A DNA stretch of 64,000 nucleotides, taken from assembly GCF_003790525.1 (NCBI RefSeq), contig NZ_CP033635.1, one strand, 5' to 3'. This DNA comes from Escherichia coli (GTDB lineage Bacteria; Pseudomonadota; Gammaproteobacteria; Enterobacterales; Enterobacteriaceae). Under the pieces are notes generated by a model. That model worked only from the letters and a program-made list of their open reading frames with translations. It ran no database searches and was not told the DNA's origin. A program made the position numbers and the translations under genes. Shown one piece after another: positions 46,981 through 47,047 of this stretch (the first letter of the stretch is position 1; the number at the start of each line of letters is the position of its first letter).

Positions 46981-47003
46981 GCTGTCAGTTCGTAATTCAG
47001 AAA

Positions 47004-47032
47004 GCCGCCGACATGTTCGGCGGTTTTTTTTT
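47004..47032. terminator. bidirectional terminator between convergent nuoN and yfbM
   Basis: GCCGCCGAACA/TGTTCGGCGG hairpin followed by T9 on the plus strand and preceded by AAA. Confidence 0.7.
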
Positions 47033-47047
47033 GGTGCCCTGACCCCA

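Follow-up and report, generated by a model that had tools for sequence, protein, structure and literature searches.

The nuoN–yfbM junction of the window (the whole stretch of E. coli DNA analysed here, 64,000 nucleotides) is best read as the common empty allele of an accessory site with multiple alleles, at which the terminator of the nuo operon is kept and the alleles have most likely been recombined through their flanks; we put the probability of this reading at roughly 0.88. The short junction is the majority state, seen in about four-fifths of complete E. coli genomes, and K-12, which carries yfbP, yfbO and yfbN at this position, is the exception. The site is not two-state: at least four gene configurations, as well as IS-disrupted forms, occur across Escherichia species. 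Whichever state came first, the junction found in the window is an old, widespread allele.

Structure of the intergenic region and its terminator

An earlier note on this DNA had placed only 67 bp between the stops of the convergent genes nuoN and yfbM, and the ends of the open reading frames at 46980 and 47048 give exactly this distance (Table 1). The two genes are named nuoN and yfbM, and are adjacent, in the RefSeq annotation of strain 165, which is 100% identical to the window here; nuoN of strain 165 encodes WP_000156701.1, the identical protein in K-12, and the window and K-12 nuoN genes share 98.4% nucleotide identity. The window YfbM matches PDB entry 1RYL (‘hypothetical protein yfbM’) at E=1e-105, and Pfam DUF1877 is recorded on YfbM homologues.

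Between positions 46700 and 47300 the terminator hairpin was the sole repeat, and neither a scar nor an IS remnant was found. An Rfam search of the same interval at permissive E-values returned only chance matches to STnc540, a fluoride riboswitch and ryfA, all far under their gathering scores, and gave no RNA gene in the spacer, and a promoter consensus scan of the junction gave no promoter-like site. The 67-bp spacer is essentially the nuoA–N operon terminator plus ~15 bp.

Table 1 Features at and near the nuoN–yfbM junction, in window coordinates; L001 denotes the corresponding locus of the K-12-type genome NZ_CP043189.
Feature	Position	Strand	Description
nuoL–nuoM spacer	43824..43986		163 bp, inside the nuo operon; REP-like palindrome AGGTCGGATAAGCCGCATTCGCGGTGCATCCGACAC
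nuoN	45523..46980	+	last gene of the nuo (NADH:quinone oxidoreductase I) operon; stop TAA 46978–46980; from the ORF list
spacer nuoN/yfbM	46981..47047	.	exactly 67 bp between convergent genes; ‘empty’ allele of the nuoN/yfbM accessory site
predicted intrinsic terminator of the nuo operon	47001..47032	+	arms AAAGCCGCCGA (47001–47011) and TCGGCGGTTTT (47017–47027); 5-nt loop CATGT; T9 at 47024–47032
same hairpin, yfbM side	46996..47027	-	followed by CUUUCUGAAUU; possible weak yfbM terminator
18 bp TTTTGGTGCCCTGACCCC	47029..47046	.	without K-12 counterpart; K-12 has 2,561 bp (L001 7249–9809) with yfbP-yfbO-yfbN instead
yfbM	47048..47551	-	167 aa, DUF1877 family; stop is the complement of 47048–47050
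yfbL start	48616..48626	-	ATG (48626–48624) followed by A8
elaD	50601..51809		deubiquitinase; intact

A simple consensus terminator scanner did not flag the hairpin, so that folding was relied on instead. On the plus strand the hairpin folds with a dG of −18.6 kcal/mol (z −5.3; 0 of 200 shuffles fold equally well), its core stem GCCGCCG/CGGCGG(U) being lengthened by A:U pairs, and both sequence features of an intrinsic terminator are present in this direction, namely a GC-rich stem-loop and a U-rich tract (T9) directly 3′ of the stem. We predict a strong intrinsic terminator for the nuo operon, in which the hairpin and T9 would end nuo transcription and prevent an antisense run into yfbM. The hairpin remains attached to nuoN in all alleles examined, empty or occupied; the nuo terminator is retained whatever sits downstream.

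Read towards yfbM, the same 7-bp GC core folds less stably (−12.9 kcal/mol, z −3.4) and is followed only by CUUUCUGAAUU, a poor U-tract. Since the plus-strand A-run consists only of AAA (47001–47003), the minus-strand transcript receives CUUUCU and no proper U-tract, and the U-rich-tract feature is unclear in this direction. The description of the terminator as bidirectional in the earlier note holds well for the nuoN side (−18.6 kcal/mol, T9) and has to be softened for yfbM: given the weaker fold and the poor tract, bidirectionality is plausible, yet weaker towards yfbM, for which the hairpin may be a weak terminator at best, so that yfbM transcripts would perhaps be weakly stopped by it. Bidirectional terminators shared by convergent genes have been called pervasive in E. 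coli by full-length RNA profiling. The junction resembles such shared terminators in having one GC-rich hairpin between two convergent stops, bordered by an A-run and, at its other end, by a T-run, but its A-run is just AAA, and any bidirectional activity is a prediction.

In two related loci, L003 (9230–10700) and L029 (5505–6278), the nuoN terminator is itself the target of IS elements. The first, from strain 510016, has ISEcB1 (IS3 family) within the loop of the terminator hairpin at an otherwise empty junction; the second, from an E. albertii-type genome, has an IS200/IS605 element with a Y1 transposase directly past the T-tract, with TTATTG at both insertion ends.

Distribution of the junction in E. 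coli

We queried 5,426 complete E. coli genomes with 467 bp centred on the junction, which was scored as contiguous where 80% or more of the query was found in one place. The query matched 5,423 of the genomes and was contiguous in 4,314, including O157:H7, O111:H2 and strain 536; in K-12 derivatives, DH1 and DH5alpha among them, it was split. K-12-like cassette DNA was present in 1,015 genomes, a share that is, if anything, inflated, since the collection over-represents K-12 laboratory derivatives and percentages drawn from it describe the database, not nature. In 946 genomes this DNA was nearly complete and in 985 it was at least 99% identical; judged from these identities, the K-12 cassette is nearly clonal and confined to a restricted E. 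coli set. Roughly 94 genomes had a split junction without K-12 cassette DNA, and examples of these were sampled.

Since the short junction is usual in about four-fifths of genomes, the absence of yfbN, yfbO and yfbP is the ordinary kind of difference in gene content between strains, and public annotations already show it. The absence itself, reported in the earlier note, was borne out by tblastn, which found no match to YfbN, YfbO or YfbP across the whole 64-kb window, and the gene order given there for K-12 (yfbM-yfbN-yfbO-yfbP-nuoN) agrees with the NZ_CP043189 map. The counts above, with 4,314 of 5,426 genomes contiguous and 1,015 carrying K-12-like cassette DNA, likewise establish the strain-variable indel site that it had proposed. 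It had named, as the finding that would speak against this proposal, a short junction shared by K-12 and most strains; most strains do share it, K-12 lacks it, and the variability stands. What ‘should’ be present here is poorly judged from K-12, which carries the minority allele of a site whose ‘missing’ genes are accessory: most E. coli can do without yfbN, yfbO and yfbP, and the position that they occupy in K-12 is a natural, neutral-looking site.

Over positions 46781–50530 the window is 100% identical to SMS-3-5 (NC_010498), strain 165 and ~28 more complete genomes, and 99% identical to ST648 strains. It shows no difference from SMS-3-5, strain 165 and the ~28 others, and is this published allele. 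SMS-3-5 presumably belongs to phylogroup F.

Among the junction matches, a single place was recorded as lying on plasmids. This was NZ_CP058715.1, a 126,040-bp record from E. coli M172-1 classed as a plasmid, whose nuoN-yfbM-yfbL-yfbK segment is 100% identical to that of the strain’s own chromosome; either a chromosomal contig has been mis-binned or duplicated here, or a plasmid has captured a large piece of the chromosome.

In the K-12-type O16:H48 genome NZ_CP043189 (locus L001), the gene order is nuoN, yfbP(−), yfbO(−), yfbN(+), yfbM(−), and the stops of nuoN and yfbM lie 2,610 bp apart. Alignment with blastn gave two collinear blocks, window 40000–47028 with L001 220–7248 and window 47047–51525 with L001 9810–14248, placing the breakpoints at window positions 47028 and 47047, with 2,561 bp between them in K-12 against 18 bp in the window. 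The left break falls within the terminator T-tract, where K-12 reads GGCGGTTTTTC and then diverges (junctions read by eye), and the right break of every allele falls exactly at the yfbM stop (ATCACCC, plus strand). GC content in the K-12 insert is 0.32–0.46, versus 0.51–0.61 in the nuo genes. The MG1655-type region of K-12 thus shares with the window its flanking genes, their orientation and the nuoN terminator hairpin (with one loop base different), but its T-tract is cut to T5 followed by C, and its yfbM–elaD side is 6.3% divergent. Since its flanks diverge from K-12 (nuo side, 1.6%; yfbM side, 6.3%), the window does not amount to a K-12-type locus from which the cassette has been subtracted.

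The same flanks show a shift in identity to K-12 from 98.4% in nuo (40000–47028) to 93.7% across yfbM-yfbL-yfbK-elaD (47047–51525). The window YfbM protein is 98% identical to that of E. albertii and 93% to that of the GTDB E. coli representative, the allele block is found at 99% identity or above in just 31 of 5,424 matching records, and the nuoN–rbn interval as a whole looks mosaic and unusually divergent.

Alleles across Escherichia and their origin

Empty and occupied alleles alike occur in several Escherichia species; the polymorphism for presence or absence is an old one that spans the genus. Within E. coli, NZ_CM142663 has yfbO-yfbN without yfbP, with genes about 85–93% identical to those of K-12, and PapRG-06-5 has yfbO-yfbN together with a gene annotated as SMI1/KNR4 family adjoining yfbM, a segment type present in ~10 genomes. 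One E. coli locus has an IS5-associated deletion that runs from the left edge of the cassette into elaD, and IS1 and IS903B variants of the nuoN/yfbM site were also seen. E. fergusonii has the order nuoN, yfbN (71% amino acid identity to K-12), a 191-aa gene, yfbM; Escherichia sp. E2748 has nuoN, a 409-aa gene, yfbO, yfbN, yfbM; and in Escherichia sp. MOD1-EC7003 yfbN lies near yfbM. E. whittamii has an empty junction whose short spacer is closely similar, and a comparable short spacer is present in the representative of E. coli in GTDB. For the E. albertii type strain, whose contig ends 14 bp past yfbM, the state was taken from other genomes with an identical YfbM; their junction is empty, with a 63-bp spacer. 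A more distant enterobacterial contig from another genus, Logan SRR11408895_117, carries yfbK-yfbL-yfbO at ~70% nucleotide identity.

The small genes that make up the occupied alleles are distributed independently of one another, in mosaic fashion. In PapRG-06-5, yfbM, yfbL and yfbK are 99% identical to K-12, yfbN is 79% identical to K-12 and 94.6% to E. fergusonii, and yfbO is 98.6% identical to the NZ_CM142663 allele. The taxonomic distributions of the three K-12 cassette genes show no relation to one another, with YfbN essentially confined to Escherichia and the YfbO (Pfam PF27222) and YfbP families each found at 35–65% identity in distant bacteria belonging to distant phyla.

At the ends of the K-12 cassette (L001 ~7249 and ~9809) we found no direct or inverted repeats, only short chance-level matches off the boundaries, in keeping with the earlier note, which had seen no scar, IS remnant or repeat at the junction, where the terminator inverted repeat is the only one in 46700–47300. 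As candidates for the origin of the cassette, we considered an IS, transposon or MITE, for which there were no boundary repeats, no target-site duplication and no transposase among the cassette genes, and an integrase-mediated island, for which no integrase was annotated in any allele and the flanks are nuoN and yfbM, not a tRNA. A microhomology read by eye in the E. fergusonii-type allele, between ATGGTG on the left and ATTGTG close to the right end, is too short, and its predicted product fits the empty spacer poorly.

Mosaic alleles whose ends show neither repeats nor an integrase or tRNA suggest rare illegitimate events followed by recombination in the flanks. The most likely course is that rare illegitimate recombination or deletion would create the alleles in the stretch from the terminator T-tract to the yfbM stop, the only DNA here that is dispensable, and that homologous recombination in the conserved flanks would then carry them from one strain or species to another. 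The mosaic identities in a few loci make flank-mediated homologous recombination the likely mechanism, and a genus-wide mosaic of alleles at so tiny a site would be a neat case of recombination-driven variation in gene content. The E. coli chromosome has gene-content hotspots without a tRNA or integrase, as described in the pan-genome literature. The nuoN/yfbM site resembles these in the differing accessory genes found between the same core genes and in its pile-up of IS elements (ISEcB1, IS5, IS1, IS903B, IS200/IS605), but it is very small, holding 0 to ~3 kb and 0–3 genes, and its alleles are common to several Escherichia species.

Two readings of the ancestral state, of nearly equal probability, have to be weighed. 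In the first, given slightly less than even odds, the Escherichia ancestor was occupied, by at least yfbN with or without yfbO, and the empty junction would go back to an old deletion, an allele that descent and recombination later made the majority in E. coli. This would fit the occupied sites of E. fergusonii, E2748, MOD1-EC7003 and three different E. coli configurations, the adjacency of yfbO to yfbL-yfbK in another enterobacterial genus, and the ATGGT that follows the T-tract in most occupied alleles and in the empty allele of E. whittamii; however, neither a deletion scar nor convincing microhomology was found at the junction, the low GC content suggests a foreign origin of the cassette, and the empty allele also occurs in E. 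albertii-type genomes. E. albertii is usually placed as an early branch of Escherichia.

The reverse polarity is possible too, with chances that fall somewhat short of even: the empty junction would be ancestral in Escherichia, and AT-rich cassettes would have been inserted later, once or a few times, and then have spread and diversified. The GC content of the cassette (0.32–0.46, against 0.51–0.61 in the neighbouring nuo genes) and the occurrence of the YfbO and YfbP families in distant phyla are consistent with such insertions. Empty spacers are found in genomes with E. albertii-type YfbM, in E. whittamii and in ~80% of E. coli, and their last 10–14 bp look alignable by eye (ATTGCACGCRGCC, ATGGTGCTCTGATACC, TTGGTGCCCTGACCCC), which, across species, would make the empty allele old. 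Set against this, E. fergusonii and two other Escherichia species have a deeply diverged yfbN (78–91% nucleotide identity) at exactly this position, the distant enterobacterial contig has yfbO beside yfbL-yfbK at ~70% nucleotide identity, and the occupied alleles are without the 10 bp CYCTGAYACC of the empty spacer, so that they do not show a clean insertion.

That yfbNOP were lost by a recent deletion peculiar to the strain or lineage of the window is very improbable, as this idea draws on the bare contrast with K-12 only, and the same junction is contiguous in the 4,314 genomes described above, O157:H7, O111:H2 and strain 536 among them; other Escherichia species have short spacers of the same type, and the two flanks, nuo and yfbM, are 1.6% and 6.3% different from K-12. 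An assembly artefact, by repeat collapse or a mis-join at the terminator, can be dismissed, given thirty independent complete genomes that are 100% identical over 46781–50530 and thousands that are contiguous at the junction.

Cassette gene products and neighbouring loci

Pfam gave only TPR for YfbP, a weak UBA-like match for YfbN (in its first ~120 residues) and no domain for YfbO; NCBIfam and PADLOC returned nothing useful for the cassette proteins, and PDB sequence searches with them nothing significant. The predicted model of YfbO (pLDDT 93.3) had no significant structural neighbour. The 409-aa protein of Escherichia sp. E2748 had no Pfam domain, and the 191-aa protein of E. fergusonii had a weak Pfam match to SMI1_KNR4 (E=0.0013), the E. 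coli fragment being named SMI1/KNR4 by RefSeq. Known anti-phage defence was considered as a candidate function, and YfbP, YfbO, YfbN and YfbM matched no PADLOC family.

A preprint on a retron toxin/antitoxin blocker screen reports that overexpression of yfbN scored as a ‘blocker’ (bioRxiv 10.1101/2020.06.22.160242), and according to a legend in the same preprint yfbO was chosen as a ‘blocker’ for its genetic linkage with yfbN (10.1101/2020.06.22.160242). Our literature search found no paper discussing the nuoN–yfbM junction.

We regard it as unlikely, though worth stating, that the site is a genus-wide cassette slot without mobility machinery, in which the flank-swapped, fast-evolving yfbN, yfbO, SUKH-like and yfbP genes would encode orphan immunity or antitoxin-like proteins. 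The likeness to orphan immunity arrays (SUKH/SMI1-KNR4) lies in the genes of the site being small, AT-rich and fast-diverging, with an SMI1/KNR4-named gene in one allele; the difference lies in the lack of a toxin gene in any Escherichia allele of the site and of a recognised immunity domain in YfbO, YfbN or YfbP. One YfbO homologue, in a 7.8-Mb genome, comes after an LHH toxin gene and two SUKH genes, and the five other contexts of YfbO homologues contain no toxin gene of the LHH kind, most of these homologues sitting among unrelated genes. Hints of an immunity role are thus few and thin, namely this one array, the weak SMI1_KNR4 match and the retron ‘blocker’ statements. The site would gain in interest if the cassette genes prove immunity-like, and the empty allele of the window would then mark a lineage without that protection.

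YfbN itself (in K-12, L001 8822–9538; other alleles in L004, L010, L017 and L021) falls into two deep classes at ~70% amino acid identity, in which the first ~120 residues are conserved and residues 121–200 are ~50% identical. After the E. fergusonii-type yfbN allele the SMI1/KNR4-like gene always follows, a pattern that would fit co-varying partner proteins.

Beyond yfbM, the elaD gene, intact in the window, is absent, frameshifted or truncated in many relatives, as seen in a comparison of elaD, yfbK and yfbL that covers L003, L004, L005, L017, L021 and L025–L030. E. fergusonii and Escherichia sp. E2748 are missing yfbL or yfbK, and E. fergusonii has a CheW-response-regulator gene where elaD would be.

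At the start of yfbL, K-12 has A7 where the window has A8, which puts the ATG out of frame with the M28-peptidase open reading frame. The ORF listing gives only a 273-aa frame with a GTG start, and RefSeq annotates 321 aa with a non-ATG start in strain 165. As the extra A is common to all ~30 identical genomes, a read error is excluded; a homopolymer frameshift, a pseudogene or a translational quirk could explain it.

All of the nuo region aligns with strain 510016 except the nuoL–nuoM spacer, which is ~67 bp longer in that strain.
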